This document shows positions 8,651 through 28,999 of a stretch of 64,000 bases of DNA, in pieces. A program made the position numbers and the translations under genes. The DNA lies in the IMG/VR virus record IMGVR_UViG_3300025727_000008, positions 14,573-78,572 of that record, one strand, 5' to 3'. The notes under the pieces are model-generated. The model did no database searches, was not told the origin of the DNA, and was given only the letters and a program-made list of their open reading frames with translations. Numbering within the stretch: the first letter of the stretch is position 1; each line of letters starts with the position of its first letter. This stretch comes from a virus.

Positions 8651-8722
8651 AAAAACCATTCCTTCGATATGCTGCCACTAGTTCTTCTGTTATTAATCTT
8701 TTAAGTTCTCTTTTCATATTCA

Positions 8723-9031
8723 TTATTTACCATCTCTCGGTTTATATATTTTAGTTCCTATATATTTCGGTTCAGGTAATGTAGGACTTAAAGGATGTTC
8801 AGTATTCATTAAACAACTCCCATTATCACTAATAGTTACTTCAGGTAAAGAACATTTTAAGTTTTTATTATGACCACATTTGGTAGCCTCACATTTTCTT
8901 ACTTTACAATCTGATGCAGTAGGTATAAACGCAGTTCCTTTTGGTATATATTTTGTTCCGCCACCTGCAATATCACTAATTCTAGAAGCCATTTCTGCAT
9001 CTTCATTCTTAACTATATCTTTCCAACTCAT
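8723..9031 (-). CDS. Leader-motif protein (MSWKDIVK) with DUF1540-like Cys cluster
   Basis: C.A..C.HN....C.....I....C pattern. Confidence 0.6.
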   Translation of the reverse strand: MSWKDIVKNEDAEMASRISDIAGGGTKYIPKGTAFIPTASDCKVRKCEATKCGHNKNLKCSLPEVTISDNGSCLMNTEHPLSPTLPEPKYIGTKIYKPRDGK

Positions 9032-9043
9032 TTAATCATCTCC

Positions 9044-9520
9044 TTAATATTCTGCACCATATTGGTTATCTACTTTAACAGGCAGCATTAGTCCATCACC
9101 CATTGGTTCTCCCCACATTTCATCATCCTTTAGTTTGTAATCTATATATGCTGGATGAACTTCACCCATTCCACCTGAAGGAGTTTGTCGCATATTGGTA
9201 TCTTTCTTACTATTCGTTTCTTCCTTATATTCATCAGATGTATCTACTAAGCCTTGAATTAAGTGAAGCAAAGCACTATTGTAGGATTCTTTAGCATGTT
9301 CTAACCTGTTAAATTTCTCATCAATATATTTAAAATCTTCTTCTGATAACTTTCCGTCTAATTTTGGAAATCGCTCATATGCTAAATGCTCAAAATCACC
9401 CCAATCTAATTTGGAAAAAGGCTCTATTTCCAAACTTTCTAATTCGTCTGCTATATCTTCTAATTCTTCCGCAATGCTACCTTTATCATTTATCTTTACT
9501 ATATCTTTCCACCAACTCAT
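9044..9520 (-). CDS. Leader-motif hypothetical protein (MSWWKDIVK)
   Basis: ORF track; GGTGA SD. Confidence 0.65.
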   Translation of the reverse strand: MSWWKDIVKINDKGSIAEELEDIADELESLEIEPFSKLDWGDFEHLAYERFPKLDGKLSEEDFKYIDEKFNRLEHAKESYNSALLHLIQGLVDTSDEYKEETNSKKDTNMRQTPSGGMGEVHPAYIDYKLKDDEMWGEPMGDGLMLPVKVDNQYGAEY

Positions 9521-9552
9521 TTAATCACCTTAATTTTGTCGTATCTGCAAAT

Positions 9553-9825
9553 TCAGGTGATTCTGCTGTACCACTCAATTTTCTCCTTTATTAGTATATC
9601 TTTTATTGTCTCGGCTTCCTTATCCCATTCAACATCTTCAGGATTTGTGTCGCCTTTTGCCAAATCCTCAAACAACCTTTGAATATATTTTAAACTTCCT
9701 AGTAAATTATTTACCCGCCCTCCAAGTTCACGAATTACGGCACTATCAGTTCCCTGTCGTAGGGTTTTATTATTAGGATTTCTCTTATCTGCGTCTTCTT
9801 TCTTTATTTCATCTTTCCAAGTCAT
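9553..9825 (-). CDS. Leader-motif hypothetical protein (MTWKDEIKK)
   Basis: ORF track; ATGA coupling. Confidence 0.65.
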   Translation of the reverse strand: MTWKDEIKKEDADKRNPNNKTLRQGTDSAVIRELGGRVNNLLGSLKYIQRLFEDLAKGDTNPEDVEWDKEAETIKDILIKEKIEWYSRIT

Positions 9826-10148
9826 TCTAAATCCCCCTTACTCTTAGGATAAACCATATCTCTTAATTGACGATATAGTGTTTCATAATCTTTTCTAAGT
9901 TCTGCTGCTGATGATACTATTTCTAAATTCCTTTCATCAAAGCCCTCAAACTTTTTTTGTAATTTTTTATCAGATTTAACTAAATCTAATTTACGCATTT
10001 CATCTAATAAATCAGATAAATGAGTCATCTCTTGACCCATATATTCAGTAGGTTGGGTTTTCTGTAAAAGTTTCTTAAGTTTCTTTTTTTGTTTAGGTTC
10101 AACTTTTTCTAAAATTGAAGTAGATTTAAGTATATTTTTCCAACTCAT
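9822..10148 (-). CDS. Leader-motif helical protein (MSWKNILK)
   Basis: ORF track. Confidence 0.7.
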   Translation of the reverse strand: MSWKNILKSTSILEKVEPKQKKKLKKLLQKTQPTEYMGQEMTHLSDLLDEMRKLDLVKSDKKLQKKFEGFDERNLEIVSSAAELRKDYETLYRQLRDMVYPKSKGDLE

Positions 10149-10185
10149 ATCTTACCCTTATCCATTCGCTTGTATGTATAGTTTA

Positions 10186-12174
10186 TCAATTTATGTTTTT
10201 AAGTTTAGAAATAATTAATTTTTCTAACCCGTTATTTTTCATAGATGTTACATATTCATTATAAATATCATCTAATTGCTTTTCAGTAGGGTTTGTTAAT
10301 TTACTTTGTTTTTCTTTTAGTGTTTTTATAAATTCCATATGTTGTATCTGCGCTGGTCTATTTAATTTTAAATCTCTAAGTGTATCAAACCATGAATCAG
10401 CCTCATCTTTCAAACTATCTATATTATCTCCTGTTTGGCTAGCATTTACATCTTTAATTTTCCTCTTCATGCGATGTGTTTCTTCTTTAGTATTATCAGG
10501 TAAATCTCCAAACCCTTCACCTAAAGCACCAGTACCATTAAATAAATTACTTAATTTTGTTAATTTCTTAACATATTTCTTTTTAAGTTCCTTAATTTTA
10601 TTTATGTTAGATTTGTTTTCCCGTTCTGTTATAGATGCGTCAACACGTTCTGTTAATTGTTCTATAGTTAATTTTTCACCTTTTTTACTATTTAAAGTAG
10701 TATCAAGCATATCTAAAATTTCTGTTTCTATTTCAATTATTTCTATATTTAACTTCTCTAGAAGAATATATTTTCCTTTAATTTTCAATGCAGATAAAAT
10801 ACCATTAAGTGCTTTTGATATTTTTTTCCTTTTACTAACTAATTCTTTAAAATTATCAATAATGGCTAAAGGCTCATTAGGTTTTGAATAACTAATACTA
10901 TCTTTGAAATCTTCAGTCATTTCATATCCATCATCATTAATATCTTTTACCCATTGTCGTTTTTGAGGTTTAACTTCTTTAGAGAGTTCGTATAGTTCTT
11001 TTATTGATACTCCGTCTAATGGAATGTCTGCATCTATTAGTGTTATTTCGTTTGATTTATCATTTAAATCTTTTATTGATTCATTTAAATCATCAATTCT
11101 AGATTGTTTCATAGGATTTTTAATTTCTACCATACAACTAATTATGAGTCTTAATATTTTTAAATTAGATTCAATTTCTAACATAAATTCTTTAAAATCA
11201 GGTTTATCCTTTTCAATATCAATACCATTATCACCTATTTCATCTTCTAATATTATTATTTTTTTTATTATTTCATATCCAATTAAATCATTATTTTTTT
11301 TAAAAAGAAGTGGTAAATGTTCATCTGCCTCTTTTATTAATTCAATATTATTTGATTCTATAGGTTCAATAAATTCTTCTATAAATTTAATAGTACTTTC
11401 ATAATCCATATCAAAATATTCAGTTAACAATTCTGTTGATTTATCACTTATATATTGATTATCAAATGTAATATCTAATTTATCAAATATAGCATATAAT
11501 ATTTTTTTGGATTTTATAAATCCGAAGTCTGTTATAATTTTAGAATATCTTTTAGGTATTTTTTCATTATTATTTAAATAACCATTTAATGATTCAGCAA
11601 GGCGTTTAATTAATTCATTTTCACTGTTAGTAGTAGTCTTTCCTGTATTTAATATTTTTTTAAACATTTCAAGGTCTTTATCTGATTTGTGTTTTTTAGG
11701 AATACCATAAATCTCTTTTAATCTAAAAATTAATCCACTTTTACGCTTTTTCTCTTCTAATAATAAGTTATATGCTTCAGGATATTTATCTTTAGTTATA
11801 TTTTTTTCAACATCATCTATTGCATTTTTAAGAATATTTAAAACTTTAAAATCATCTATTTTCCTTGTTCCTGTATCGTCTTTAGGAGTAGTAGTTTGTG
11901 TTTTTTCACCCTCTTCAAGTCGTTCCGTGTCTGTAAATGTTTTATGATGTATATATGTCCACTCACTATTATTAATATCATCCAAATTAAAAATATCTAA
12001 TTGAGGAACACCATCTAATTGATTATATTTATTTTTTACGTCTTTCATATCCCTAATTAAAGTCTTACTTTCCTTTAAATCCATCTCCCTATATTTACGC
12101 AAAATTTTTATTATGATTTCCGATAATGGTTTAAGTTTACGTTCTTTATTTTTTAAAATATCCATAAACGACAT
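10186..12174 (-). CDS. Large K/E/I-rich helical protein (MSFMDILK), candidate internal virion protein
   Basis: 662-aa ORF in the head module with a variant leader. Confidence 0.65.
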   Translation of the reverse strand: MSFMDILKNKERKLKPLSEIIIKILRKYREMDLKESKTLIRDMKDVKNKYNQLDGVPQLDIFNLDDINNSEWTYIHHKTFTDTERLEEGEKTQTTTPKDDTGTRKIDDFKVLNILKNAIDDVEKNITKDKYPEAYNLLLEEKKRKSGLIFRLKEIYGIPKKHKSDKDLEMFKKILNTGKTTTNSENELIKRLAESLNGYLNNNEKIPKRYSKIITDFGFIKSKKILYAIFDKLDITFDNQYISDKSTELLTEYFDMDYESTIKFIEEFIEPIESNNIELIKEADEHLPLLFKKNNDLIGYEIIKKIIILEDEIGDNGIDIEKDKPDFKEFMLEIESNLKILRLIISCMVEIKNPMKQSRIDDLNESIKDLNDKSNEITLIDADIPLDGVSIKELYELSKEVKPQKRQWVKDINDDGYEMTEDFKDSISYSKPNEPLAIIDNFKELVSKRKKISKALNGILSALKIKGKYILLEKLNIEIIEIETEILDMLDTTLNSKKGEKLTIEQLTERVDASITERENKSNINKIKELKKKYVKKLTKLSNLFNGTGALGEGFGDLPDNTKEETHRMKRKIKDVNASQTGDNIDSLKDEADSWFDTLRDLKLNRPAQIQHMEFIKTLKEKQSKLTNPTEKQLDDIYNEYVTSMKNNGLEKLIISKLKNIN

Positions 12175-12189
12175 TACTATTACCTCTGC

Positions 12190-12420
12190 TTAAAATGGGA
12201 TATTTTCACTACGCATATTTTTTCTTTTAGGAGTTATCATAACATCAGGTATGTTACTAGGGGCATCATCTGTTTTATTTTTTAATGTTGTAGATGGGTC
12301 TACACCAACTACCGCATAATCCTTACTAACAGTAACATTACTTCTCTGTTCCGAACCTTCCTTAATTCTTGCTTGCTTCAATTCTCTTTCTAATTGTCTT
12401 ACACTTTTTTCTTCACTCAT
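12190..12420 (-). CDS. Small hypothetical protein
   Basis: ORF directly after the portal gene. Confidence 0.6.
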   Translation of the reverse strand: MSEEKSVRQLERELKQARIKEGSEQRSNVTVSKDYAVVGVDPSTTLKNKTDDAPSNIPDVMITPKRKNMRSENIPF

Positions 12421-12421
12421 T

Positions 12422-14092
12422 TTATCCTACTCTCCTTTCTGTTCTTTTATCATTATTTTGATTACCAGCATCTTTAGGTAATCCTGTAAATCTTTTATCA
12501 GGGGCAACATTCATTCTAGGTTTGTTTCTCTTTTTAGGGGGTTCTGATTTTGCTTTTTCTGGAACACCCGCTTCTGCCAAACTAGGTTTATTACCCGCTT
12601 CCATCATTTGCCCTAATTGGCTTGCATCAACATCAGTTCCAGCATAAGGGTCAGGTTTGAAATCATCACCATCTGTTTGGGTTTTACCTTGTTCATCTCC
12701 TTCTACTGGTTCGGGTTTAGTATAAATAAATCCACCTTCATCATCCATTTCTACATCAAACCCTAAATTCTTTATTGAACCTGCAATATTAACTTCCATT
12801 TCTCTTAATCGAAGAACAGCAATTTCATCTTCTTCTTCAGAAGGTGGTAATTTTAATTCCCAATCAGTAATGCCAAATTCACTAGTCATAAAAGGAAATA
12901 CATAATTATTCCAAGTTGTTTGTGCCATCTCTACTGCGCGATTAGTAACAAGAATTTGCATACCTTCGTTATTTAACCCACCACTAGCAGAAGCATCATT
13001 CATAAACACTTTACTAACTCCATAGAACCCTGATATTCTATCTCTCAAATCATCTTTAACTGCAATATAATCCATTTCCTTAAGGCTGTCCATAAATCTA
13101 ACCCATTCAACAGAACCCTTACCACCTTCAGATTCTATTCCCATTACAGGTATGAAGTGTGGGTCTTGTTCCATCTTCTCTTTAACGCCACGCCAAAAAG
13201 ATTTCATTGAATCCATATTTCTAGTTTGAACAGCCAACAATCCCTTCGGCATTCTTGCCTTAGTATATGATGAATTTACATAATTATCCATTGCTATTAA
13301 GGTTGTAACATTATTCCATAATGTTATTATTGGCGACATACCATATAATCTAGAAGGAGAATATTTACTAAAATGTACTACTTCACCTTTAATGAAATAC
13401 TGTTCCTCTCCATTTACTCTATTAACATAATGAACAGGATATAATTCAGATGCACAAGTTTCACATAACTCAGTTTGATGACTATGTACTCTATCTCTAT
13501 GTCTTAAACAAATAAATCCACCTTTACCTCTTTCCCCTAATTCATTAGAATAAATATGCATAGTAACAGGGTCGCCTCTAAATATTTCTTTAATTTTATG
13601 CATTCTAATTTTTGAATTATTATCTAAATAATATTCTTTAACATTAACTAAATATGCATCATCCATAATATTCAAATCATCTTCTAATTCTTTTAATACA
13701 TCAATAAATAATTGTTCTGCACCATTAACATAACCATCTAAAAAATCTTTAGCATAACTTAATTGTTTAGGTTCAGGTTTAACTAAATTGGTAGAACCGC
13801 AATCAACACATTCCTTTACAGGAGTAGAATGTTCTTTATCACATTCTGCACACTTTTCTGTAAATTTTCCTTCCCATATATATCCCCGTCTAAATATTTC
13901 TTGTTTCAATTGAGTTATACAAGTTCGTACTATTGTTGATTGTTGAACTATATGATAAATTATAGGACTAGTTAACATATAGGAATTATCTCTTTCTTGT
14001 ATTCCTAAATTAAACACCGTTCTATCTGCGGGTTTAGGTGTAGTATTTCTAAACAAGTTAGTAAATGAAAACTTTCTTTTTTCTTCAACCAT
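12422..14092 (-). CDS. Portal protein with Zn-ribbon insertions
   Basis: Position between terminase and protease; EVVHFSKYSPSRLYGMSPI, MPKGLL and ISGFYGVSKVFM portal-type motifs. Confidence 0.85.
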   Translation of the reverse strand: MVEEKRKFSFTNLFRNTTPKPADRTVFNLGIQERDNSYMLTSPIIYHIVQQSTIVRTCITQLKQEIFRRGYIWEGKFTEKCAECDKEHSTPVKECVDCGSTNLVKPEPKQLSYAKDFLDGYVNGAEQLFIDVLKELEDDLNIMDDAYLVNVKEYYLDNNSKIRMHKIKEIFRGDPVTMHIYSNELGERGKGGFICLRHRDRVHSHQTELCETCASELYPVHYVNRVNGEEQYFIKGEVVHFSKYSPSRLYGMSPIITLWNNVTTLIAMDNYVNSSYTKARMPKGLLAVQTRNMDSMKSFWRGVKEKMEQDPHFIPVMGIESEGGKGSVEWVRFMDSLKEMDYIAVKDDLRDRISGFYGVSKVFMNDASASGGLNNEGMQILVTNRAVEMAQTTWNNYVFPFMTSEFGITDWELKLPPSEEEDEIAVLRLREMEVNIAGSIKNLGFDVEMDDEGGFIYTKPEPVEGDEQGKTQTDGDDFKPDPYAGTDVDASQLGQMMEAGNKPSLAEAGVPEKAKSEPPKKRNKPRMNVAPDKRFTGLPKDAGNQNNDKRTERRVG

Positions 14093-15429: not shown

Positions 15430-15441
15430 TATATCACCGCC

Positions 15442-16875: not shown

Positions 16876-16876
16876 A

Positions 16877-17467
16877 CTATGTCTCCATAAACATAAACAT
16901 AGTTGCTTCTAATTCACTCATTGCCTTTACAATATTCCAAGCCTTATTCATTGAATTAGGATTCCAAACTAATATTTTATCCCCGCCAATTCTTTTTCTT
17001 TCATTTTCAACTACTTCCATTGGTAATCCTTCAGGAATTTCTTCATCAGTAGGATTTTTAATCCAACCTCTTCTTTGAAATGCAGCAATCCAACCACCAT
17101 CAGGTATAGTTTTATTATTTATACTACCTAAAATAGGTTTATCCTTTATCAATTGCATTCTTTTATCTATTAAATTAGAAGAAATTCTTTTTTTTCTATA
17201 TGGAGTAGCAATAGTGCTTCCGGCTAAAACCACATAACTTTTTTTTTCAGACCAACCCGAATAACCCACAATCATATCTCCGTCTAATGCAATTAGATAT
17301 TTTACATTATCAACAGAATATGGACTTAAAGTGGGGCGTGTTTTTCTAGGGTTTTTATTTTGAACATATATTTTTTGCCAATTTTCTTCGCGAGATTCTC
17401 CCCATTGACTATTCCATAGTTCTAACATCTCTGCTTCTGTATATATTTTACTAGGGTATGTTATCAT
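16877..17467 (-). CDS. GNAT-fold acetyltransferase
   Basis: YLIALDGDMIVGY strand and ATPYRKKRISSNLI motif-A-like segment. Confidence 0.6.
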   Translation of the reverse strand: MITYPSKIYTEAEMLELWNSQWGESREENWQKIYVQNKNPRKTRPTLSPYSVDNVKYLIALDGDMIVGYSGWSEKKSYVVLAGSTIATPYRKKRISSNLIDKRMQLIKDKPILGSINNKTIPDGGWIAAFQRRGWIKNPTDEEIPEGLPMEVVENERKRIGGDKILVWNPNSMNKAWNIVKAMSELEATMFMFMET

Positions 17468-17471
17468 AATA

Positions 17472-20234: not shown

Positions 20235-20238
20235 ATTA

Positions 20239-22500
20239 TTAACCTCTTATATTATGTTCTTCTGCTAACCAAGTAATTGGTTGAAACTTACGGTTTCCAC
20301 TTAAAACAACATCTTCATTTATTACATATTTTATAGATTCTTGTATTTCATTAAGAAGTGATTTTCTTACATGTTCGTATCTATCTAATAATAAATCACG
20401 CATGTCTTTAATAAGAGTTTGTTTATTTTCATCATCATCTATTTTTTCATTTTTATTTTTATCTAAAATATCCCAAGCACGACGTATTTCATTGTTACCA
20501 TTTATATTCCCATCTAAACCCTTACTAAACATTATAAATTTCCCAAAATTTCTACTTACATTATATTCGATTATTTCTGCTTCGGGAGATGTAAGGGTTT
20601 CTTCATCTTCATCCTCAGTATTAAAAACCATTTTTTTGAATTTTTGAAGAGTTATTTTATCTGCATTATTTTGAGTTTCAAAATCTATATGTGTCTTAAC
20701 CATATTGTTAAGTATTGTTTTAAATTTATTTATATCCATCAGACTCTCTATTGCCATCCCAATATCAAAAAATTCTAATCCTGTTAATCTTTCTATTTTA
20801 TTTTCAGTTTCATCATCTACCTTACCTTCAAATAATAACAAACCTTCTCTTTCATTAGAAGTTAAAGTAGCCCCTAAATATGAATCTTCTAGTTTATTTA
20901 ATAATTTTTTAACACCCGTTTTAAATCTCAAATCACTTTCGTTATCTACATGTCTGTCTACCGGAAGTATTGTTGCCATTAAATTCCAAGTATTAGAATT
21001 ATAATTATTATATTTATTTTGTAATTCATCTAATAAGTCGTCGTCTATTTTAGTGTCTGTTTTAAGTTGTTTTGTTTCATGTTTATCAAAATAACTTTTT
21101 AACTTAATAAGCAATTTACTTGTTTTAATTTTACTTTTAACTTCGGTTAACATCTCATTAAGTAATGGTTCTAGTTGTTCTTTATTTTCATGGTTAAAAT
21201 AAATATCAAACATATACTTATAGGTATCATAATCATCAACAAGAAGTCTAAATGACTTATTAGTACCTTGTAACATTTGCTTTTTATCTGACTTTGTTCC
21301 AGTCGTTATAGCCTTTAAAAAATATTCTATTGATACCTTTGTTGATGGTTGTTCAATCTCATTTTTACGTCGCCCAGTAATCCTTGTTAATTCTTCCGTA
21401 CTTTTTTTACCTGCTTTTTTACGCGAACTTTTTTCACTTGAATCAAAATCAATATATTCAGCAAACTTCAAAGTTTGAGCCAACTTAGTTCTTTTAATAG
21501 CATTATAATTATTAGTTGTTCCATTAGAAAATATAAATAATTGTTCTTTAGTCATAAATTTAGGAAACCCTGTAAACGCAAATAAACTTCTTTCTTTATT
21601 TCCATACGCCCTTTCAGTTTTTGATTTGCTAGGTAGTTTTAATTTAGGTGGTGGGGCTAACAGGTTCTTACCCGAAAGAGGTTGAGGATTCGCATTAAAT
21701 CCGAACGTAGACCAATCTATATGTCTAAATTTAGATTCTAATGGTTTACCACCTATAGTATATGTTTCATTTATTTTATCATATAATACAGGTTTAGGTG
21801 TATCAATATCAAGGTCGAGTTTTTCAGCCTTAATCTTAATAGCATCTGCAACTTTACCTTCTATCTCCATAAGTATCATAGTTCCATCTTTAATTTCATA
21901 CCCTAATATTTCAGGATTAGATTTTAATTTCTCTATGATTTTTTTCTTATCAATTTTATTATTATTAATTAATCTACCTAATATCACCTGTCTTTGAGTA
22001 ATTGCATCTTCCGCTAATACTCTTTTTTTGGTAACTAGTTTTTTCTTATCTCTAAAAATATGTTCACTATAAGAAACCTTACCAGTTAAATATTCAATAA
22101 GTTTTTCAATATCATTATTATATAGTTCCATAATAATACTATGATTATGATTACTATGCATATTTTTCAATTCTATAATCCATTTTATTTTTTCACGATA
22201 TTTTGAGAATTCTTTCATAGGTAATTTAACATGTGAAATTGATATTGGTGGTTCTTTAAAATAATCAACTTCAGGTGGGGCTAACAGTTTCTTATGTAGT
22301 ATAGTTAAAATTTCTTGAAATTTAGGTTCAGTCATTTTATCCGAAGGAACAGGGGGTTTACCAGTATGAATATGTTTATCATAAAAATCACTAACTGCAT
22401 TATTCATTTCTGATTTATTATATCCTAATAATGGATATACTAATTTCATTTTAGGCGACATAACTTTCGCTCTATCTTTAAGAATTAATTGCCAACTCAT
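20239..22500 (-). CDS. Large leader-motif protein (MSWQLILK, 753 aa)
   Basis: Long ORF with the shared leader. Confidence 0.7.
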   Translation of the reverse strand: MSWQLILKDRAKVMSPKMKLVYPLLGYNKSEMNNAVSDFYDKHIHTGKPPVPSDKMTEPKFQEILTILHKKLLAPPEVDYFKEPPISISHVKLPMKEFSKYREKIKWIIELKNMHSNHNHSIIMELYNNDIEKLIEYLTGKVSYSEHIFRDKKKLVTKKRVLAEDAITQRQVILGRLINNNKIDKKKIIEKLKSNPEILGYEIKDGTMILMEIEGKVADAIKIKAEKLDLDIDTPKPVLYDKINETYTIGGKPLESKFRHIDWSTFGFNANPQPLSGKNLLAPPPKLKLPSKSKTERAYGNKERSLFAFTGFPKFMTKEQLFIFSNGTTNNYNAIKRTKLAQTLKFAEYIDFDSSEKSSRKKAGKKSTEELTRITGRRKNEIEQPSTKVSIEYFLKAITTGTKSDKKQMLQGTNKSFRLLVDDYDTYKYMFDIYFNHENKEQLEPLLNEMLTEVKSKIKTSKLLIKLKSYFDKHETKQLKTDTKIDDDLLDELQNKYNNYNSNTWNLMATILPVDRHVDNESDLRFKTGVKKLLNKLEDSYLGATLTSNEREGLLLFEGKVDDETENKIERLTGLEFFDIGMAIESLMDINKFKTILNNMVKTHIDFETQNNADKITLQKFKKMVFNTEDEDEETLTSPEAEIIEYNVSRNFGKFIMFSKGLDGNINGNNEIRRAWDILDKNKNEKIDDDENKQTLIKDMRDLLLDRYEHVRKSLLNEIQESIKYVINEDVVLSGNRKFQPITWLAEEHNIRG

Positions 22501-22631
22501 ATTAAATCACTACTTTCTAAAATAATTCTAATATCATTTATGGTTGGATTACCTTTCATTACTTTTATAATTTCATTTAGAGCGTCTGACCTTTTAGCCC
22601 CTATGTTTTTAATGGTATCTTCCCAACTCAT
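22497..22631 (-). CDS. 44-aa leader-motif peptide MSWEDTIKNIGAKRSD... (missing from the ORF track)
   Basis: Hand-translated; ATGA overlaps with neighbours at both ends. Confidence 0.7.
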   Translation of the reverse strand: MSWEDTIKNIGAKRSDALNEIIKVMKGNPTINDIRIILESSDLI

Positions 22632-22987
22632 TTTGCCTTACCCCCCGTACATTTTTCAAAATTATCTATCATTTTTTCTAGTTCTGCTAATCCCCAAGTG
22701 GGAAAGTTACTATCTTTTTGTGGTTTTTTAACTTCATCTATCATATGCAAAATTGTTCCCACTACCACATCACAAGGCTTTTCTAATATGCTCAGAAAAT
22801 AATCTTTCATACCGTTAACATCTTCTTCAAACAACCCCTCTCTAGAATGACCTAATTTTTCAGCGTAATATTCAACTAATTTTTCAATAAACATACTATA
22901 CTCAGTTTTTAATTGAGAACAACACGATTCATACGCATCGAACTTTACATCTAAAATTTGTATTTTTAAAACATCTTGCCAACTCAT
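22628..22987 (-). CDS. Leader-motif protein (MSWQDVLK) with CC...C...C pattern
   Basis: ORF track. Confidence 0.65.
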   Translation of the reverse strand: MSWQDVLKIQILDVKFDAYESCCSQLKTEYSMFIEKLVEYYAEKLGHSREGLFEEDVNGMKDYFLSILEKPCDVVVGTILHMIDEVKKPQKDSNFPTWGLAELEKMIDNFEKCTGGKAK

Positions 22988-22993
22988 TGTAAC

Positions 22994-23329
22994 TTATCCC
23001 TCCAAATTACCATCTAAACTATACAGTATTACATCTGATACTGCTACTTCTAATGATATAATCAGTTCTCTTAATTCTTTATCTAATACCCCTGCGTTTC
23101 TTACCGCCATCCTATAATCATCATCATGCTCCATGTCGTAAGGTTCTCCTTTCTCGTCTATTAAATACGGGTTATTTTTATGATGAGCATATTTTTTAGC
23201 GTTTAATAAGAACTGTTGAAGTTGTCTAATTTCATCAAGAGTCATAGAACCAAAATTAGGGTGAGTTTGCATAAGTTTAACCATAGCATTTACTTCGGGT
23301 TTATTCTTTAAGATATTATTCCAACTCAT
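22994..23329 (-). CDS. Leader-motif protein (MSWNNILK)
   Basis: ORF track. Confidence 0.65.
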   Translation of the reverse strand: MSWNNILKNKPEVNAMVKLMQTHPNFGSMTLDEIRQLQQFLLNAKKYAHHKNNPYLIDEKGEPYDMEHDDDYRMAVRNAGVLDKELRELIISLEVAVSDVILYSLDGNLEG

Positions 23330-23736
23330 TGCATCAACTCTATCATTAATCCTTTTTCATCAATTTCTGTAACTTTCAGTTCTGAATTATTCTTCAGTTT
23401 ATCTGCAACCTTATACAAATGAGGATTCGTTATTCGACCATAGGCTAACCAAAATGGCCTATATTCTCCTAATACCCCATTAGTGTCCATTAATGCCCCA
23501 ACTACCATTTTTTCTGCAAACCCTTTTCTTTGGTAATCAGGATGAATAGAAATATGTAATTCTCTTATCTTTCCATCATTAAATGGCTTCATGTTTTCAA
23601 GGCTACTATAATCTTTAGGCCGGTAATGCAAAATTAGTTTATCTCCGTATTCCTCAAACAAAACATTGTGAAACCAACCATCATCATCTACTGAAATAGG
23701 ACTAATTTCCGCTTTTAATAACTGTTGCCAACTCAT
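23326..23736 (-). CDS. Leader-motif GNAT-fold acetyltransferase (MSWQQLLK)
   Basis: LHISIHPDYQRKGFAEKMV matches GNAT motif A (Q/RxxGxA). Confidence 0.7.
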   Translation of the reverse strand: MSWQQLLKAEISPISVDDDGWFHNVLFEEYGDKLILHYRPKDYSSLENMKPFNDGKIRELHISIHPDYQRKGFAEKMVVGALMDTNGVLGEYRPFWLAYGRITNPHLYKVADKLKNNSELKVTEIDEKGLMIELMQ

Positions 23737-24392
23737 TGTAACTTCTCCATTTTACTTCTAACATCTAACCAAACTTCAGGATGGTTTTGTGCTAACACCT
23801 CTTTGATAATTTGCATCTGATGAACAATAATTGTATCTTGCCTCTTATGTACTAACTTACCTTTGAACTCCATCAAGTATCTCAAACTCTCACGGACTTC
23901 TTTAGCCAACTTAGTTAGTGAATCAATATGTTTAGCATCCAAATCATCGGAATCAAAAAGCATATCTAACTTAATATCTAATCTAGAAATATTTGCACTC
24001 AAGGTATCAACCTCATTTATTTCTTGCATAGCAATCATATTTGCAGCAGACTGTTGAACTAAAGGTTGCACATGATTTTTAATATGTCTAACTACTTGGT
24101 CAGCAGTACAATTTAACATTAAACCAACTTCTTCAGGAGTTATATTTGCACCATGTAATTGCAATTCAATCTCACTTCTATGTTCACTAATACAAATGTT
24201 ACATCTAGGATTAGAAGAATTAACATATCCTTCCATGTGATTTCTTTGATGTCTTGAAGCAGTTCCACTAGACCAATCCATTTGGACATCCAAATCATCA
24301 GCAGTAATTATCATATTATCTAATTCATCTTCTAGAGTTTGCCTATTATCTAAATTACAAAATACACAACGTTTTCTGGTTATCATTTCCAT
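23733..24392 (-). CDS. Putative terminase small subunit (tandem CxxC..HTH..RH..NH repeats plus coiled coil)
   Basis: Two repeats CVFC...RHQRNH and CNIC...RHIKNH, then an oligomerisation-like helix; upstream of terL. Confidence 0.55.
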   Translation of the reverse strand: MEMITRKRCVFCNLDNRQTLEDELDNMIITADDLDVQMDWSSGTASRHQRNHMEGYVNSSNPRCNICISEHRSEIELQLHGANITPEEVGLMLNCTADQVVRHIKNHVQPLVQQSAANMIAMQEINEVDTLSANISRLDIKLDMLFDSDDLDAKHIDSLTKLAKEVRESLRYLMEFKGKLVHKRQDTIIVHQMQIIKEVLAQNHPEVWLDVRSKMEKLQ

Positions 24393-24751
24393 AATTCCTC
24401 TTCAGGGTAAAGTTCCATAGCCTCTTCTATATCTTCTCTAAAGTTTTCAGCGACTTCTAACCAATCAACATCTGATATTGAATCTCCTACTTCATCTCTA
24501 TCATTAACGGGAGATAATAATTCATCCATGAAACCTTTACTTTGAGTCATCATTTCAGGTAACTCTTTTGCTATTGTATTTAATATATCATCTATAACAT
24601 CTTGTTTAGTCCAGTTGAATTCAAGATAACCTTTTACCTTTAATTTAATTAACTGTACTATAGGAAAATAAAGTTCTTCAGTATTCATAACCCATAAATC
24701 TGCACTTCTAGTAGCAGTTGCGGTATCTTTCAATATCTTTTTCCAACTCAT
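24383..24751 (-). CDS. Leader-motif protein (start re-assigned to MSWKKILK at 24751)
   Basis: ATGAGTTGG at 24751 with upstream GGAG. Confidence 0.65.
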   Translation of the reverse strand: MSWKKILKDTATATRSADLWVMNTEELYFPIVQLIKLKVKGYLEFNWTKQDVIDDILNTIAKELPEMMTQSKGFMDELLSPVNDRDEVGDSISDVDWLEVAENFREDIEEAMELYPEEELWK

Positions 24752-24823
24752 CTTAATACTCTCCACAATAAGGACACATAATCCCTGAATAATTATCACT
24801 GTTAATATTTATTTTACAACACT

Positions 24824-25990
24824 TTAACATATTAATTCCCTCTTTAAAATATCTCGCCAATCATTAACTTCTACATCATTAGTTTTTTTAGTTTGAGATT
24901 TAACTTCCGGTTTATCAAATCTAATAGTAACAGTATTATGTTTCCTACCTGTTTTTGGTTCAGTAAACTTTCTATTATTTTCCTTCAATAATATTTTTGC
25001 CATCTGATTTGCTACCCCTCTAGTTAATTTAAAATATCCTCGTTTAAGTGTGAAAAATTCAGGTATTCCTAAATTATTCCTAACTCTATTTTGAAAATCT
25101 TTTCTTGTTGGCAATAAATGACTTTTACTCTCTATTTCTCGCATAACCTCGCCATATCGAAATGCACCATTTCTACCTGCCATATCAGGTTCAATATATT
25201 TACGAACTATTCTCTTAATACTATTAATTTCTAATGCTTTTTCAGCCCAACCTGTTTGTCCTTTTTTTCCTAATTTAATAGGATTATCTTTACTTATACC
25301 TACACCGTCTTTTAAGGCTTCAATACCTTCTTCTATGATTTCATGTAAACTTTTAGAACTTGTAATTTTAACCTCACCTTCTCTACCATACATAACTTGC
25401 CAAAAAGGTGGTTCGGCTACACCTTTAGAATAGTCATACCAAGATTCAGGACATGCCGGTGCAGGGTTTAAATCCCTTTTAGGGAATTTTTTCATTTTAA
25501 TTTTTCTTTTATTTTCATAATTTTTAGTACGATAGTGTCCATATACTTCTTCTTCATCTACAACTTTACCACTATCTTCATCTACTTCTTTATCGGTAAA
25601 AGAAATATTTCTAGGATTTAAAGGGTTTTGAGGGCTACTATAAGAATCCATTAAAAGTCTAACTTTATTTAATTTTATTATATCATCTATACCAATATCT
25701 TCTCCATCAACAATATTAGTAATAATTCCTATAATTTCAGAACCACCTTTACCACTAGTATAAGGTGAAGGGGATTTATCACCTTGTAATCTACCAATTA
25801 ATCCTTGTTGTTTAAACATCTGATAAAGACTAATATCATTTTCCATAAATAATGTTTCACCACTTATTTCTGATAACTGTTGTTGCCAATTATCAAACGA
25901 TTTTCCAAACATTTGGACATTAGCACCAGTTAATTTAACATCATTTTTTAAGATTATATTTGACGTTCTTTCTAGGTTTCTTTTTGCCAC
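24824..25990 (-). CDS. Hypothetical protein with C-terminal motif copy (DWRDILK)
   Basis: 388-aa ORF. Confidence 0.7.
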   Translation of the reverse strand: MAKRNLERTSNIILKNDVKLTGANVQMFGKSFDNWQQQLSEISGETLFMENDISLYQMFKQQGLIGRLQGDKSPSPYTSGKGGSEIIGIITNIVDGEDIGIDDIIKLNKVRLLMDSYSSPQNPLNPRNISFTDKEVDEDSGKVVDEEEVYGHYRTKNYENKRKIKMKKFPKRDLNPAPACPESWYDYSKGVAEPPFWQVMYGREGEVKITSSKSLHEIIEEGIEALKDGVGISKDNPIKLGKKGQTGWAEKALEINSIKRIVRKYIEPDMAGRNGAFRYGEVMREIESKSHLLPTRKDFQNRVRNNLGIPEFFTLKRGYFKLTRGVANQMAKILLKENNRKFTEPKTGRKHNTVTIRFDKPEVKSQTKKTNDVEVNDWRDILKRELIC

Positions 25991-26108
25991 GTTTTTTACC
26001 CCCTATTGATTTATTATTAAATAAAGATGAAGTTCCACTATTACTAGTAGTAACTGCCCCTGCCATTCTTAGTATTGTAAACCATTTAGTGTTAAGAGAA
26101 GATGCCAC
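25941..26108 (-). CDS. 55-aa basic peptide MASSLNTKWFTILRMAGAVTTS...KKRGKKKPRK (missing from the track)
   Basis: Hand-translated from GTG; carries WFTILR motif then a basic tail. Confidence 0.55.
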   Translation of the reverse strand: MASSLNTKWFTILRMAGAVTTSNSGTSSLFNNKSIGGKKRGKKKPRKNVKYNLKK

Positions 26109-26251
26109 TTATCTAAGCGCAATACTACTTGGACTATAACTATTCTTCTTCTCCTTCTATTGCTCTAATAATAGCATACCAGTATTCTTCTTCTTGAGTT
26201 AGAATTTTATTATTCTTATCTTTTTTCATTTTTATTAAACCAATTTCTATT

Positions 26252-26551
26252 TCACTCCAATCCTTTAAACGAATCTCTTTCTGAAATACCAGCATCATCC
26301 ATTATATCTTGCAATCTAGCAACAAGATACTCATTTGTGAACACCTGCCAATTACCTTCTTCGGTTTGCATTGCTTCTAATCCACTTTCTAACCAAGTCA
26401 ACCATCGGTGAGCATCATGTTCTAACTGTCCTTTCAACTTAGGCAAATACTCTAATCTAAACCTTCTAAGAAAATCCTTTACTTGCGCTACAGTCAATTC
26501 ATTAGGATTGTAATGGGGTTTTTCCTTTCTAATTATATTAAACCAATTCAT
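26252..26551 (-). CDS. Leader-motif protein (MNWFNIIRK)
   Basis: ORF track. Confidence 0.65.
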   Translation of the reverse strand: MNWFNIIRKEKPHYNPNELTVAQVKDFLRRFRLEYLPKLKGQLEHDAHRWLTWLESGLEAMQTEEGNWQVFTNEYLVARLQDIMDDAGISERDSFKGLE

Positions 26552-26766
26552 TTTAATTGCCTTCTTAACATTGGTTTTTTAAATGTATTATATAATTCCC
26601 ATAATGGTTCACTTGAATTAAGCCTAGTTATTTCATCATTCAGTTTTTTCATTCTATAAAGTGCTTGTGCGTCAGATTTAAAATCTTTAACTTTATCTCC
26701 TACTTCTGTGTACCATTCAGTATTACCCGATATGTGTCCTTTCTTAATTTGTTTTTTCCAATCCAT
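26548..26766 (-). CDS. Leader-motif protein (start re-assigned to MDWKKQIKK)
   Basis: ATG at 26766 follows the previous stop; ATGA coupling downstream. Confidence 0.6.
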   Translation of the reverse strand: MDWKKQIKKGHISGNTEWYTEVGDKVKDFKSDAQALYRMKKLNDEITRLNSSEPLWELYNTFKKPMLRRQLK

Positions 26767-26770
26767 AATA

Positions 26771-27253
26771 TCATTTCCCCCTTGCCATAACTTCAGCACA
26801 CCTTCTACAATAGTGTAACTCTTTAGGTGAACCCTTTGAATGTATTTTACCATCTCTTATATATTTTTTAGTGCCTAGAGATACCGGTTTTTTGCATCGA
26901 ACACAGCGAAATTTACTAAGATTAGAATTTGGTTTTTTCTTTTCTTTTCCTTCAGGTCGCCCACTTGCATTAAATCCTTTAATACCATATTGCACTTCAC
27001 CTTCTTGTGCCATTGATGTTCCTAACCTAGTTTTTCTCTCTTCGATTAATTTTTTACCTTCAACATTCCTGTTTAGTGGTAAATCTGTTCCTCTTCCCAT
27101 TGTTCTACTAGTGCCTTTGGGTGCATGACCTTCCTCTTCAATAGATTTTACTCTTTCGTTAGGTTTTAATCGTTCACCACCCATTATATCAACAGGTTTC
27201 CTGTTCCTATTCTTTCTAGGCCGATTTCTTTTAATTAAATCAAACCAAGTCAT
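26771..27253 (-). CDS. Basic leader-motif protein (MTWFDLIKR) with C-terminal Zn finger
   Basis: CVRC...CRRC. Confidence 0.65.
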   Translation of the reverse strand: MTWFDLIKRNRPRKNRNRKPVDIMGGERLKPNERVKSIEEEGHAPKGTSRTMGRGTDLPLNRNVEGKKLIEERKTRLGTSMAQEGEVQYGIKGFNASGRPEGKEKKKPNSNLSKFRCVRCKKPVSLGTKKYIRDGKIHSKGSPKELHYCRRCAEVMARGK

Positions 27254-27516
27254 TTTTTCCCACCTTCTAATATATTCCTACTAACTTGGCAACACAATCT
27301 AATCTTTTGTGTACTTTCTAAAAACCAAAAAGAATCCTTATCCCAATCAAATTTATTCTCAACATGATTACAAAGTTCTCTTCTTCCCATGTTTTGCAAA
27401 TCACCATCTATACTAACATCAAGAATATCACCTTTCGGATGCACTAACTTCTTATCTAACCAAACATAGGTACTACCCATGAATGCAATCAATTTTCTAA
27501 TTATCCATTGCTTCAT
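27250..27516 (-). CDS. Hypothetical protein
   Basis: ORF track; ATGA coupling. Confidence 0.6.
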   Translation of the reverse strand: MKQWIIRKLIAFMGSTYVWLDKKLVHPKGDILDVSIDGDLQNMGRRELCNHVENKFDWDKDSFWFLESTQKIRLCCQVSRNILEGGKK

Positions 27517-28214
27517 ACTAAATCACCTACTACAATATCATGAATATTATTTGAACTATCTAAATATTGCAATATTAGTTTTACTTTTTCTTCATGCTTG
27601 ATAACATCGTCATAAAAAATATCTATAGATGAAGGAAACAAATATACATTCTCATGCTTTAATTGCCATACTTTATTACTGTAACTACCAGTTTCATCCC
27701 ACGTTGTTATATTTTCATCGTAAATAGTCAATGGTCTAATTACCAGTAAGTTATCCATGTGATTTAGTAGTTCATTTAAAGGCTGGTGGAAAATGGAAGT
27801 TCTGTTGTTTTCGGAGAGCCATCCATCATCTTCTTCTTGCATTGCGTTATACTCTTCCCACATTCTTTCATTCTCTAATTCATTTTCTGTTTTTTCCGGT
27901 TCAATCATATGGAGTTTATTATATCTTTTCGTTATATTATTTTTAGCAATATTAACTATCTTTTTGAATTTTTCATTCAACACATTATGCCCATTAAGAG
28001 TTAGACCACGATTACGCTTAATCCAATTAATAGTTTCTTCCTTAGTTTTCTGAGTTTCAATTGGTTGGCTCTTAGTCCAAGCAGACGGTTGTTCATGATA
28101 TTTTTTCGGAGTAACATTTCCACCTGACTTATTAGGACTTGACTTATTTCTATTCTTCTTTTGAGCATTACTAGGCCACTTCTTTTTTCTTTTTAGAATA
28201 TCAAACCAAGTCAT
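27513..28214 (-). CDS. Leader-motif protein (MTWFDILKR) with basic N-terminal region
   Basis: ORF track. Confidence 0.65.
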   Translation of the reverse strand: MTWFDILKRKKKWPSNAQKKNRNKSSPNKSGGNVTPKKYHEQPSAWTKSQPIETQKTKEETINWIKRNRGLTLNGHNVLNEKFKKIVNIAKNNITKRYNKLHMIEPEKTENELENERMWEEYNAMQEEDDGWLSENNRTSIFHQPLNELLNHMDNLLVIRPLTIYDENITTWDETGSYSNKVWQLKHENVYLFPSSIDIFYDDVIKHEEKVKLILQYLDSSNNIHDIVVGDLV

Positions 28215-28218
28215 TTTT

Positions 28219-28647
28219 TCACCCTTTATTTTCTATGCCTAATTTAACATTTGGTGTTCCAAACAAACCATCAATAATTCGCCTGTATGGTTTACTAATA
28301 TAACTATTGTATGCAACAAAATCTATTAATTCTTGAACGGAACTAAATTCTGTCTTAGTTAAATATTGTTCTATTTCTTCAGAATCCCACATAAAATGCC
28401 CCCCATTAGAAAACGAATTACCATCCAGTCTTTTGGGAGAACCACGCTCATCATATTTTTTATATTGTAATCCTAATCTAGATGCTGTGTTTTTAATTTC
28501 TTCTTCAATTTCATTAGACCAAGAAATAGGAATATAACCAATTGCCTTTTGTTGATTTGAATTAAACATATTTTCTAATTCTCTTAATTTATTTAGATTG
28601 TGTTCTTTATCGAACCTTTCATTCTTTAAAACACTAAACCAATCCAT
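28219..28647 (-). CDS. Leader-motif protein (MDWFSVLK)
   Basis: ORF track; GGTGA SD. Confidence 0.65.
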   Translation of the reverse strand: MDWFSVLKNERFDKEHNLNKLRELENMFNSNQQKAIGYIPISWSNEIEEEIKNTASRLGLQYKKYDERGSPKRLDGNSFSNGGHFMWDSEEIEQYLTKTEFSSVQELIDFVAYNSYISKPYRRIIDGLFGTPNVKLGIENKG

Positions 28648-28789
28648 TTTATCACCAAAGTTGTGGGTACTGAAATGTTTTACCTAATGAAAACTGAAAA
28701 ATGTGGTGGAATTTATTTAGCACTAGCGCGATTTTTTTTGTTGGGTAGTAACCATAAACAGTATAAGGATAATAGTAATGTGCCATTTA

Positions 28790-28999
28790 TTATTCCTCGA
28801 TAAACTTTAGTGTTGTTTGTTTTGAATTAGGTTTCTGTTCATCAGCACTAATAACTTTAGTTGGTTTAGGTTTACCTTTAAACCATTTACTCGCAGGTTT
28901 AGATGATACAGTTGCACCGTCAATTAATTCTTCAGGTAGTTTTGTTTGTGTTGTATTCTTTTTATTTTTACTATCTTTGATAATATTAAACCAGTTCAC
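28790..28999 (-). CDS. Leader-motif peptide (MNWFNIIK, GTG start)
   Basis: GGTGATG SD; first gene of the minus arm. Confidence 0.6.
   Translation of the reverse strand: MNWFNIIKDSKNKKNTTQTKLPEELIDGATVSSKPASKWFKGKPKPTKVISADEQKPNSKQTTLKFIEE

Follow-up and report, generated by a model that had tools for sequence, protein, structure and literature searches.

About 20 unrelated, fast-changing proteins of a magrovirus share an eight-residue peptide at one terminus. By a little over an even chance, we lean towards reading this peptide as a transferable helix by which accessory proteins dock in, and are loaded into, the procapsid, a view suggested by its sequence and by analogy with other tailed viruses. 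Magroviruses are uncultured tailed viruses that are abundant in the ocean and have marine group II archaea as hosts. The window (the whole 64,000-nucleotide stretch analyzed, from IMG/VR record IMGVR_UViG_3300025727_000008) had been described in a preliminary description as encoding a candidate capsid-targeting N-terminal leader. That interpretation is partly supported: the tag is modular, is confined to the head arm, and resembles the tails of the protease-scaffold and of a conserved small protein, p79. No published description of the tag was found in the literature, and HVTV-1, a halovirus and the nearest cultured relative by capsid protein, shows no such tag, a point against the loading reading.

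Between positions 8723 and 28999, 18 minus-strand open reading frames (ORFs) begin with M-[STND]-W-x-x-[ILV]-[ILV]-[KR] or a near variant. All of the tagged N-termini listed in the preliminary description were recovered on that strand, as were its near-terminal copies KWFTILR, DWRDILK, and AWNIVK. The degenerate DNA pattern ATGRNTTGGNNNNNNRTNNTNARR has 9 matches in the window, every one on the minus strand, where shuffles lead one to expect 0.02. The tagged ORFs are as follows.

28790..28999 (minus): N-tagged ORF, 69 aa, GTG start, (M)NWFNIIK, basic, pI 9.7
28219..28647 (minus): N-tagged ORF, 142 aa, MDWFSVLK
27513..28214 (minus): N-tagged ORF, 233 aa, MTWFDILKR, MTWFDILKRKKK
26771..27253 (minus): N-tagged ORF, 160 aa, MTWFDLIKR, MTWFDLIKRNRPRK, pI 10.4, 4 Cys
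26548..26766 (minus): N-tagged ORF, 72 aa if the start is MDWKKQIKK; the longest ORF starts upstream, at 26853
26252..26551 (minus): N-tagged ORF, 99 aa, MNWFNIIRK
26140..26298 (minus): ORF, 52 aa, C-terminal copy ...YWYAIIRAIEGEEE*
25941..26108 (minus): ORF, 55 aa, very basic (pI 11.8), displaced tag KWFTILR at residues 8-14
24824..25912 (minus): family 14, 362 aa from the first ATG, C-terminal tag ...NDWRDILKRELIC*
24383..24751 (minus): N-tagged ORF, 122 aa, MSWKKILK, acidic
23733..24392 (minus): conserved 219-aa protein, N-terminal Cys motif, possible scaffold-type tail ...EVWLDVRSKMEKLQ*
23326..23736 (minus): N-tagged ORF, 136 aa, MSWQQLLK, sub-threshold GNAT match
22994..23329 (minus): N-tagged ORF, 111 aa, MSWNNILK
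22628..22987 (minus): N-tagged ORF, 119 aa, MSWQDVLK, 4 Cys
22497..22631 (minus): N-tagged ORF, 44 aa, MSWEDTIK
20239..22500 (minus): N-tagged ORF, 753 aa, MSWQLILK; no Pfam, PHROG, or Atlas lead
16877..17467 (minus): GNAT-like family 8, 196 aa, degenerate C-terminal copy AWNIVK 15 aa from the stop
10186..12174 (minus): large variable protein, 662 aa, after portal and p76, Phe variant MSFMDILK
9822..10148 (minus): family 4, 108 aa, MSWKNILK
9553..9825 (minus): N-tagged ORF, 90 aa, variant MTWKDEIKK
9044..9520 (minus): N-tagged ORF, 158 aa, MSWWKDIVK, one-residue insertion
8723..9031 (minus): N-tagged ORF, 102 aa, MSWKDIVK plus a DUF1540-like Cys domain

The tagged genes form two islands, one upstream of a 920-aa gene and TerL, the other between portal and ligase. 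Counting N-terminal, C-terminal, and scaffold-type copies alike, island A (20239-28999) has 14 of 17 ORFs tagged and island B (8723-12174) 5 of 5, which together make 19/22. By the same loose definition, none of the 54 ORFs of the plus-strand replication arm is tagged, nor is any of the 18 neck and tail ORFs, including those in 14.5 kb of genome beyond the window. The two-island layout is kept among relatives, and tags lie only in the head arm in all of them. Confinement to the head-assembly arm, as first proposed, is supported, but within that arm the tagged genes are grouped in the two islands and are not spread among the head genes generally.

The proteins that bear the tag are numerous, soluble, and quickly replaced in evolution, and their genes lie in the head-assembly arm only. 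Across 160 related loci we counted 547 unique tagged ORFs in approximately 194 families, 120 of them singletons. A Pfam domain was absent from 114 of 120 family representatives, and with a transmembrane-like segment in only 2 of 498 tagged proteins, nearly all look soluble. Within the window, DUF1540 was the only cargo Pfam domain above the cut-off, and the GNAT assignments made earlier fell below threshold (Pfam E values of 0.013 and 0.063); the bodies are indeed unrelated, each falling in a separate BLAST cluster. Most window copies have no homolog in loci whose TerL is 92-94% and major capsid protein (MCP) 96% identical. Family 4 is the one tagged protein kept in nearly all relatives (111 loci), the family 14 tag, 5 residues from the stop, is kept in about 20 relatives, and the tag of the DUF1540-like ORF is retained in 6/6 database homologs. 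The cargo sums to approximately 3,900 residues per genome, including the 662-aa and 753-aa proteins, which is a lot of protein to pass through a portal and counts against the loading reading.

The tag works at either terminus and is set off from the body by variable or disordered linkers. W-x-x-Phi-Phi-K (Phi, hydrophobic) also occurs at the C-terminus in at least five other families, 2-15 residues from the stop, so that framing the motif as an N-terminal leader was too narrow, real as the N-terminal copies are. In the GNAT-like family the tag usually sits at the C-terminus; three members have it at the N-terminus instead, and in these the C-terminal copy is decayed. Family 4 consists of the tag, a variable linker of 0-37 aa, and a helical-bundle body, and linkers in the DUF1540-like cargo range from 0 to roughly 65 aa. 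AF2 models place the N-terminal tag, at low confidence, detached from a confident helical bundle, and in family 14 model the C-terminal tag as a helix past a disordered linker. The Trp, Phe, Ile, and Leu of the tag share a single face of the helix. Basic runs come after some copies (MTWFDILKRKKK, MTWFDLIKRNRPRK), and acidic stretches after many.

Selection acts on the tag as a peptide. All synonymous codons are in use at positions 6-8, with Leu at position 7 encoded by all six and the Ile, Val, and Lys codons free to vary; the earlier proposal of a modular, amino-acid-level tag on unrelated proteins is borne out by this variation and by placement at either end, and the alternative it named, conservation at the DNA level only, fits poorly with amino acids that are retained while these codons vary. 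Among 771,573 residues, matches to [ML]xWxx[ILVT] numbered 644 at residue 1, 228 in the last 25 residues, and 59 internally, so the tag is almost never internal. Start-anchored matches in 80 TerL-anchored loci were found 490 times on the TerL strand and 0 times on the opposite one. Position 8 is Lys in 455 copies versus Arg in 17, about 60% of copies have Asp or Glu at position 5, about 20% have Glu at position 4, and the residue following the Lys is unrestricted (K, A, E, R, N). The tag is not a cellular signal: a strict DNA pattern found about 70 times in some 2.2 Mb of magrovirus loci gave 36 single, scattered matches in 596 Gb of prokaryote genomes, where our own estimate of the chance expectation is about 26.

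A link to head assembly is suggested by the tails of two conserved gene products, listed here with the major capsid protein.

8420..8659 (minus): p79, conserved small coiled-coil protein (79 aa), scaffold-type tail ...SMEWEDIHELVNTMG*
4392..5570 (minus): prohead protease (Peptidase_S78) with fused scaffold domain, ends ...SMTWDDVHNLVRGD*
2986..4389 (minus): major capsid protein (HK97-like, SU10_MCP)

The protease-scaffold, ordered as S78 protease, acidic linker, coiled coil, and conserved tail, and p79 share the C-terminal sequence M-[SD]-W-x-[DE]-I-H-x-L-V; the wider form [ML]-[SDT]-W-x-[DE]-[IVL]-[HN]-x-Phi-Phi closes both proteins in every relative, down to 49% identity. Tag residues 1-6 (M-S-W-x-D-I) match these acidic tails in this lineage. 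The likeness is not general. Genomes with another leader type, A-F-x-x-A-W-x-L-L-K, include 3 of 14 with the scaffold tail M-S-W-D-E-V-H; because these three pair a different leader with the same tail, the leader is not simply a copy of the tail, and the two need not bind one site. Conserved in the N-terminal part of the MCP are a segment reading Y-I-x-T-M-x-D-L-E-A-x-T-Y-G and, at residues 27-30 here and about 28-36 residues in across all lineages examined, a near-invariant L-L-K-[AS]; this region is a candidate receptor and cleavage site.

On the loading reading, the tag would form a short N-capped amphipathic helix around one Trp, ending in hydrophobic-hydrophobic-Lys, and would tether unrelated soluble accessory proteins to the interior of the assembling procapsid. 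The receptor would be the capsid interior, most likely the conserved MCP N-terminal segment. Tethered proteins would be enclosed together with the scaffold and later lie in the head alongside DNA, and part of the cargo may reach the host with it. The Phi-Phi-K end could be a hook like the RIIK of phage 80alpha, an S78 prohead protease cut site (a possibility raised by the near-invariant L-L-K-[AS]), or both. Cleavage after the tag Lys is plausible by analogy; N-terminal tags would then be clipped and their cargo freed, and C-terminally tagged proteins would remain attached, a lack of release that counts against such a cut.

It is unlikely, in our view, that the tag is instead only a mark for the prohead protease, with Phi-Phi-Lys as cut site and the preceding helix as recognition element, playing no part in head entry; its bearers would be pro-proteins that the protease activates or destroys. 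HK97-type proteases cut capsid protein after Lys, the enzyme here is a Peptidase_S78, and the Lys bias at position 8 and the capsid L-L-K-[AS] agree with such a mark, as does the G-N-x-x-V-I-K repeated in Gly/Pro-rich linkers of the scaffolds in genomes with a 12-residue leader. F-x-ILK strings also flank the protease domain, in or beside the Pfam S78 match (residues 26-175; profile 15-158 of 165), but in our judgment they are ordinary strands of the fold and weak evidence for a cleavage code. A cut after the Lys of a C-terminal tag, however, 2-15 residues from the stop, would barely alter the protein; the capsid protein has a small residue past its Lys, a restriction that tags do not show; and a prohead protease works within the procapsid, so its substrates must enter anyway.

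Comparably improbable is docking to a non-capsid partner, such as a host chaperonin, a proteasome or ubiquitin-like system, a sliding clamp, or a virus-made compartment, with the tagged proteins acting in the infected cell and the scaffold-tail likeness reflecting coincidence or reliance on a common folding helper. Short linear motifs of the [SD]-W-x-x-[ILV] kind are very general, and peptides that bind clamps or chaperones typically sit at one terminus or the other. Island A opens the leftward gene block at its promoter-proximal end; early expression and a role in the infected cell are therefore conceivable for its genes, which counts against head loading, and the A-type leader alongside a B-type scaffold tail in three genomes points the same way. 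Against this stand the untagged replication arm, the restriction to the head arm in all relatives, the chance-level occurrence in cellular genomes, and the related tail on two conserved scaffold-like proteins, where the capsid-binding tails of other tailed viruses sit.

We regard as very doubtful an amphipathic helix of the MinD/FtsA/SepF type that targets the host membrane: the single hydrophobic face, the basic runs after some copies, and the fact that membrane-targeting helices can occupy either terminus would fit, but eight residues are short for binding membrane, acidic residues are frequent at positions 4 and 5, acidic stretches follow many tags, and the scaffold-type tails are acidic. 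Just as remote is a nucleotide-level signal, whether it helps translation to initiate or couple or provides homology for exchanging cassettes. In its favor, Ser2 is AGT in 279/287 distinct N-terminal contexts (in C-terminal copies, the Ser preceding Trp shows a normal codon mix), ATGAGTTGG is nearly fixed, and several starts overlap the preceding stop as ATGA. Such a signal can account for codon 2 and not for the motif, whose codons 6-8 vary freely, which has C-terminal copies and has relocated within one family, and whose 24 nt with variable third positions offer poor recombination homology.

Compared with known systems, the loading reading finds parallels and departures. In the HK97 maturation protease and the herpesvirus protease-scaffold, a protease enters the procapsid by way of the C-terminal tail of a scaffold to which it is linked or fused, and their domain order is the same as in the magrovirus; copies of such tails are not known from large sets of accessory proteins. 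Encapsulin cargo-loading peptides, which are short, mostly C-terminal, and sometimes N-terminal, and attach via flexible linkers, bring unrelated enzymes into an HK97-fold shell, but an encapsulin is a compartment of the cell that lacks portal, terminase, and DNA, whereas the magrovirus locus is a complete tailed-virus head module. The internal proteins of phage T4 are a diverse set in which only the targeting sequence is conserved, with a role in loading the prohead core (PMC3012670), and the analogy drawn in the preliminary description holds in its logic of a conserved tag on a hypervariable set. Like the magrovirus tag, the T4 capsid-targeting sequence (on IPI-III and Alt) is a short conserved N-terminal peptide on diverse, fast-evolving phage-encoded proteins that are hypervariable among close relatives. 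The sequences are dissimilar, the T4 protease is of the gp21 type and the magrovirus one S78 (HK97-type), and the magrovirus tag also occurs C-terminally, serves a virus with an archaeal host, and marks about 20 cargo families per genome, far above T4; loading in T4 is published, whereas packaging and clipping in the magrovirus are proposed. In 80alpha, the last 16 residues of the scaffold make up an amphipathic helix and RIIK hook that bind the capsid protein N-arm and the A/P cleft, and the 72-aa CpmB of SaPI1 has this tail too (PMC5644958). This terminal helix followed by hydrophobic-hydrophobic-Lys resembles the magrovirus tag, yet there is no sequence homology, the 80alpha motif is restricted to the C-termini of scaffolding proteins whereas the magrovirus tag is on dozens of accessory proteins, and the magrovirus scaffold tails end in H-x-L-V, not Phi-Phi-K. 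In 80alpha the tail occurs on the main scaffold and also on a small helical protein that forms dimers; the protease-scaffold and p79 are the parallel pair in the magrovirus.

The window covers most of a 78.6-kb virus record, in which the genes form two arms that point away from each other on either side of an intergenic region (about 29-30.5 kb). Replication genes lie on the plus-strand arm (UvrD-type helicase, ribonucleotide reductase, TFIIB-like factor, ATP-dependent ligase, and family-B polymerase), and the minus-strand arm is a tailed-virus head module containing the following genes:

2986-4389, minus strand: major capsid protein (MCP), HK97-type
4392-5570, minus strand: S78 prohead protease fused to scaffold (Peptidase_S78 and head maturation protease PHROGs)
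5603-8188, minus strand: second ligase, of the structural module (861 aa)
12422-14092, minus strand: portal
15442-16875, minus strand: large terminase (TerL)

A ligase inside the structural module is a published hallmark of magroviruses, viruses of marine group II archaea (PMC5434244). Hundreds of relatives are present in IMG/VR.

On the minus strand between 8723 and 28999, 17 ORFs start with M-[STND]-[WF]-x-x(-x)-Φ-Φ-[KR], where Φ is a hydrophobic residue, and an 18th carries the peptide at residues 8-14. The preliminary description, made from the sequence alone, had proposed that this leader is a capsid-targeting signal like that of phage T4 internal proteins; every N-terminus that it listed is present in the window, and its observation is confirmed and extended here. 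A degenerate DNA form of the tag gave nine matches, all on the minus strand, versus 0.02 expected from shuffles. The tagged genes form two islands in the window: island A (20239-28999), which has the terminase and a conserved 920-aa gene downstream of it, with 14 of 17 ORFs tagged, and island B (8723-12174), between portal and ligase, with 5 of 5 (counts that take in N-terminal, C-terminal, and scaffold-type copies). None of the 54 plus-arm ORFs is tagged, in keeping with the earlier remark that replication genes lack the leader, and neither is any of 18 neck and tail ORFs, a set that includes the 14.5 kb outside the window. The same two-island arrangement was found in 80 loci with terminases at least 78% identical, where all 490 start-anchored copies share the strand of the terminase.

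Several other proteins of the minus arm have conserved termini. An 88-aa ORF in island A (27250-27516, minus strand), conserved in 14 loci, starts M-K-Q-W-I-I-R-K, with the Trp followed directly by I-I-R-K, possibly the tag in compressed form. A conserved, untagged 219-aa protein of the same island (23733-24392, minus strand) has an N-terminal R-K-R-C-x-x-C cysteine motif and a conserved C-terminal H-P-E-V-W-L-D-V-R-x-K-M-E-x-K-L-Q that loosely resembles the scaffold-type tail. The structural-module ligase (5603-8188, minus strand) is untagged, and its relatives keep a C-terminal [IV]-W-[ND]-I-x-E-D-K-[YF]-x-x-L-x-[FL]-P, which could be another terminal docking element. Directly after the portal, a 76-aa protein (12190-12420, minus strand) has a C-terminal I-P-D-V-I-L-L-P-K-K...E-N-I-P-[FW] kept in all relatives. 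The 920-aa protein (17472-20234, minus strand) and family 14, a 362-aa protein with a C-terminal tag (24824-25912, minus strand), are present in most relatives and are only 34-36% identical where the terminase is 92-94% identical, which is very fast evolution for genes of conserved position.

By one scan of 596 Gb of prokaryote sequence (185,579 genomes), the tag is not a cellular signal: a strict DNA form of M-S-W-x-D-I-L-K gave 36 matches, with about 26 estimated by chance. These were single and scattered across taxa, none came from a Poseidoniales record, and host or cellular use was rejected on these grounds. In magrovirus loci totaling about 2.2 Mb, this DNA form gave about 70 matches, every one on the strand of the terminase.

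BLAST grouped 547 unique tagged ORFs (median 109 aa, range 40-825 aa) from 160 related loci into about 194 families, of which 120 were singletons. No Pfam domain was found in 114 of 120 family representatives, and one of the six matches is probably the protease itself caught at an internal start. Most tagged genes of the window had no homologue in the 160 loci, even though its nearest relatives share 92-94% terminase and 96% MCP identity; the candidate cargo set is thus polymorphic among close relatives, with the exception of family 4 (9822-10148, 108 aa, starting MSWKNILK), which is conserved in 111 loci. Searches of the window's cargo proteins against Pfam and PHROGs gave one domain above threshold (DUF1540); the GNAT labels of the preliminary description correspond to sub-threshold matches. 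These databases returned nothing for the 662-, 753-, 920-, and 388-aa proteins, and an ESM Atlas look-up of the 753- and 388-aa proteins gave no usable lead. The AF2 model of family 14 had no PDB match in Foldseek at E <= 0.001, and its strong BFVD matches were only three unnamed viral proteins. TM-like segments occurred in 2 of 498 tagged proteins versus 4 of 48 plus-arm proteins, and the pI of tagged proteins was bimodal. One relative's tagged protein matched the PAP2 phosphatase family (E 2.6e-13, alignment A3); this family is normally membrane-embedded, and such a protein would be odd capsid cargo.

Sequences and models indicate that the tag is a module separate from the protein body. Between tag and conserved body, family 4 has 0-37 residues, and a DUF1540-like protein (8723-9031) keeps the tag in six of six database homologues with linkers ranging from none to roughly 65 residues. 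The AF2 model of family 4 is a confident helical bundle (mean pLDDT 83) in which residues 1-10 have a pLDDT of 48, and in that of family 14 the C-terminal tag forms a helix (352-361) after a disordered stretch (335-349). We dropped an argument from disorder-rich linkers, as the disorder-promoting fraction of residues 9-24 after the tag was 0.67 versus 0.64, a negligible difference. Ser, Thr, Asn, and Asp, found at tag position 2, are classic helix N-cap residues, and the spacing W(i), Φ(i+3), Φ(i+4), K(i+5) puts Trp3, Φ6, and Φ7 on one helix face. The reading that we favor, with moderate confidence, is that the tag is a portable terminal docking helix that would bring fast-changing soluble accessory proteins into the procapsid, with clipping after Lys possible.

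The protease-scaffold (4392-5570) ends in ...SMTWDDVHNLVRGD, and p79, a conserved 79-aa coiled-coil protein (8420-8659), ends in ...SMEWEDIHELVNTMG. Their common tail, [ML]-[SDT]-W-x-[DE]-[IVL]-[HN]-x-Φ-Φ, is found in all relatives down to 49% protease identity, and its opening six residues match the leader, with a Met that does not serve as a start codon in the tails. We also examined 14 genomes with a 12-residue leader, M-T-A-F-D-x-A-W-x-L-L-K (A-type), a tag that occurs C-terminally as well, as ...KKAFDTAWEISIW at the stop codon. In A-type genomes, scaffold and p79-like protein have L-x-x-W-x-A-A-E in common. Of the 14, 11 end their scaffold differently, in D-[GA]-W-[RKL]-A-x-E-x-L, and the p79-like protein has a related L-x-E-W-x-[AQ]-A-E in the two looked at (G001 and G003). 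The other three (G004, G008, and G011; L240-L241, L244, and L249) have only the 12-residue leader, yet their scaffold tail is M-S-W-D-[DE]-V-H, of the window lineage's type (B-type); leader and scaffold tail are thus not strictly coupled, and the idea that the leader is a copy of the scaffold tail, true in the window lineage, was abandoned as a general rule. In this lineage, nature provides a test of which partner the leader follows. Constant in every lineage are the Φ-Φ-K end of the tag and an L-L-K-[AS] in the MCP, which follows a strongly conserved N-terminal segment and lies about 28-36 residues into the protein. Docking of the helix to a partner other than the capsid is a weaker explanation than the procapsid docking we favor. 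A single pointer to possible contact of the tail with the MCP N-arm or A/P cleft is that, in all genomes seen, leaders and MCP N termini vary in type together, a correlation confounded by shared ancestry.

The tag might also be purely a substrate mark for the protease. Cleavage after Lys by the S78 enzyme is plausible from the near-invariant L-L-K-[AS] of the MCP, from the preference for Lys (455) versus Arg (17) at tag position 8, and from G-N-x-x-V-I-K repeats in the Gly/Pro-rich scaffold linkers of genomes with the 12-residue leader. Two copies stand in such a linker in protease-scaffolds L237:7723-9120, L238, and L242, and they look like repeated protease sites resembling G-N-A-L-L-K of the window MCP. 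However, any residue is allowed behind the Lys in tags, and proteins tagged at the C terminus would not be freed by such a cut. The Pfam S78 match (residues 26-175, profile 15-158 of 165) contains or adjoins the F-x-ILK strings that flank the protease domain; these were given little weight because they were judged probably part of the fold, and they were set aside as a cleavage code. A pure protease mark explains the tag less well than a docking helix does, and cleavage would be a matter separate from loading.

Selection on the tag acts mainly at the peptide level. Synonymous codon use is free at positions 6-8, with all six Leu codons and mixed Ile, Val, and Lys codons; the preliminary description had allowed for conservation at the DNA level only, and here the codons vary while the amino acids are kept. 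Over 771,573 translated residues, [ML]-x-W-x-x-[ILVT] occurred 644 times at residue 1 and 228 times in the last 25 residues, with only 59 occurrences at all other positions. W-x-x-Φ-Φ-K stands just ahead of the stop codon in several families, including family 14 (24824-25912; ...NDWRDILKRELIC at the stop, conserved in about 20 loci), a 228-aa family, and a 1090-aa protein ending ...SSWQEILKVVR, and a 410/473-aa family has the tag at both ends. In a GNAT-like family beside the terminase (window 16877-17467), the tag is C-terminal in most members and N-terminal instead in three, with the C-terminal copy decayed in the one examined; the tag is therefore not start-codon context. Synonymous variation and C-terminal copies led us to reject both a pure translation-start signal and a recombination junction, and together with this movement between ends they make any nucleotide-level signal a weaker explanation than peptide docking. 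What remains on its side is the Ser codon at position 2, where AGC never occurs and AGT accounts for 279 of the 287 distinct N-terminal contexts (starts 9031, 9520, 10148, and 22500-24751, and relatives), while Ser before Trp in C-terminal copies shows an ordinary codon mix. This bias points to an RNA-level or start-context constraint, or to spread of the leader by copying, and does not account for the motif. Weaker, too, is a membrane-targeting amphipathic helix of the MinD/FtsA/SepF type, which is cationic and without conserved acidic residues, unlike the magrovirus tag, with Asp or Glu at position 5 in about 60% of 472 copies and acidic related tails in scaffold and p79.

Magroviruses, which are uncultured, are the dominant archaeal viruses of the surface ocean, and for most of their genes no function is known. 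Should the tag prove to be a capsid address, sequence alone would suffice to predict the packaged proteins, roughly a fifth of each genome would move from "hypothetical" to "virion cargo," and the fast-evolving cargo would be a likely source of counter-defense or host take-over factors. The peptide is small, appears to function at either end, and tolerates any linker, so it is directly testable in heterologous procapsids. A fuller and distinctly less probable proposal is an address code in which a terminal Trp-helix and Φ-Φ-K would direct head loading, N-terminal tags would be clipped after Lys and their cargo delivered with the DNA, and C-terminal tags would stay shell-bound. If true, about 200 "dark" protein families would be effectors that travel in the virion and take part in an arms race with marine group II archaea, and foreign proteins could be loaded into archaeal virus capsids by means of the tag.

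In halovirus HVTV-1, which by MCP (23% identity) is the closest relative in culture, the head module shows no terminal motif common to its proteins. Two magrovirus papers that were searched, PMC5434244 and PMC11706807, mention neither such a motif nor internal proteins. As a capsid address, it would be the first tag for cargo loading to be described in an archaeal virus. Encapsulins are HK97-fold shells without portal or terminase whose cargo genes lie in the operon, whereas the magrovirus locus has TerL, portal, protease, and tail genes. The capsid-targeting sequence of phage T4 is likewise one short terminal peptide on unrelated phage proteins; the magrovirus tag has 18 N-terminal copies in the window, and the candidate magrovirus cargo set is also polymorphic among close relatives, so that the parallel with T4 is one of logic. 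Judged from its consensus, M-[STND]-W-x-x-Φ-Φ-K, the magrovirus tag is not related to the T4 system in sequence: it ends in Lys, not in Glu as do the L/I-x-E sites, and the magrovirus protease is Peptidase_S78, not gp21-type. If the tag is indeed a capsid address, the T4-like strategy of one label for many proteins would have had a separate origin in viruses with an HK97-type protease and scaffold. The scaffold protein (SP) of phage 80alpha has a C-terminal stretch of 16 residues that forms an amphipathic helix with an RIIK hook; this binds the N-arm of the capsid protein, and the tail recurs on CpmB, a small protein of SaPI1 (PMC5644958). The magrovirus tag is similarly predicted to be an amphipathic helix at a protein's end, flexibly tethered and finishing in hydrophobic-hydrophobic-Lys, and the protease-scaffold and small helical p79 share one tail as do SP and CpmB; the parallel with this helix and hook is close in form.
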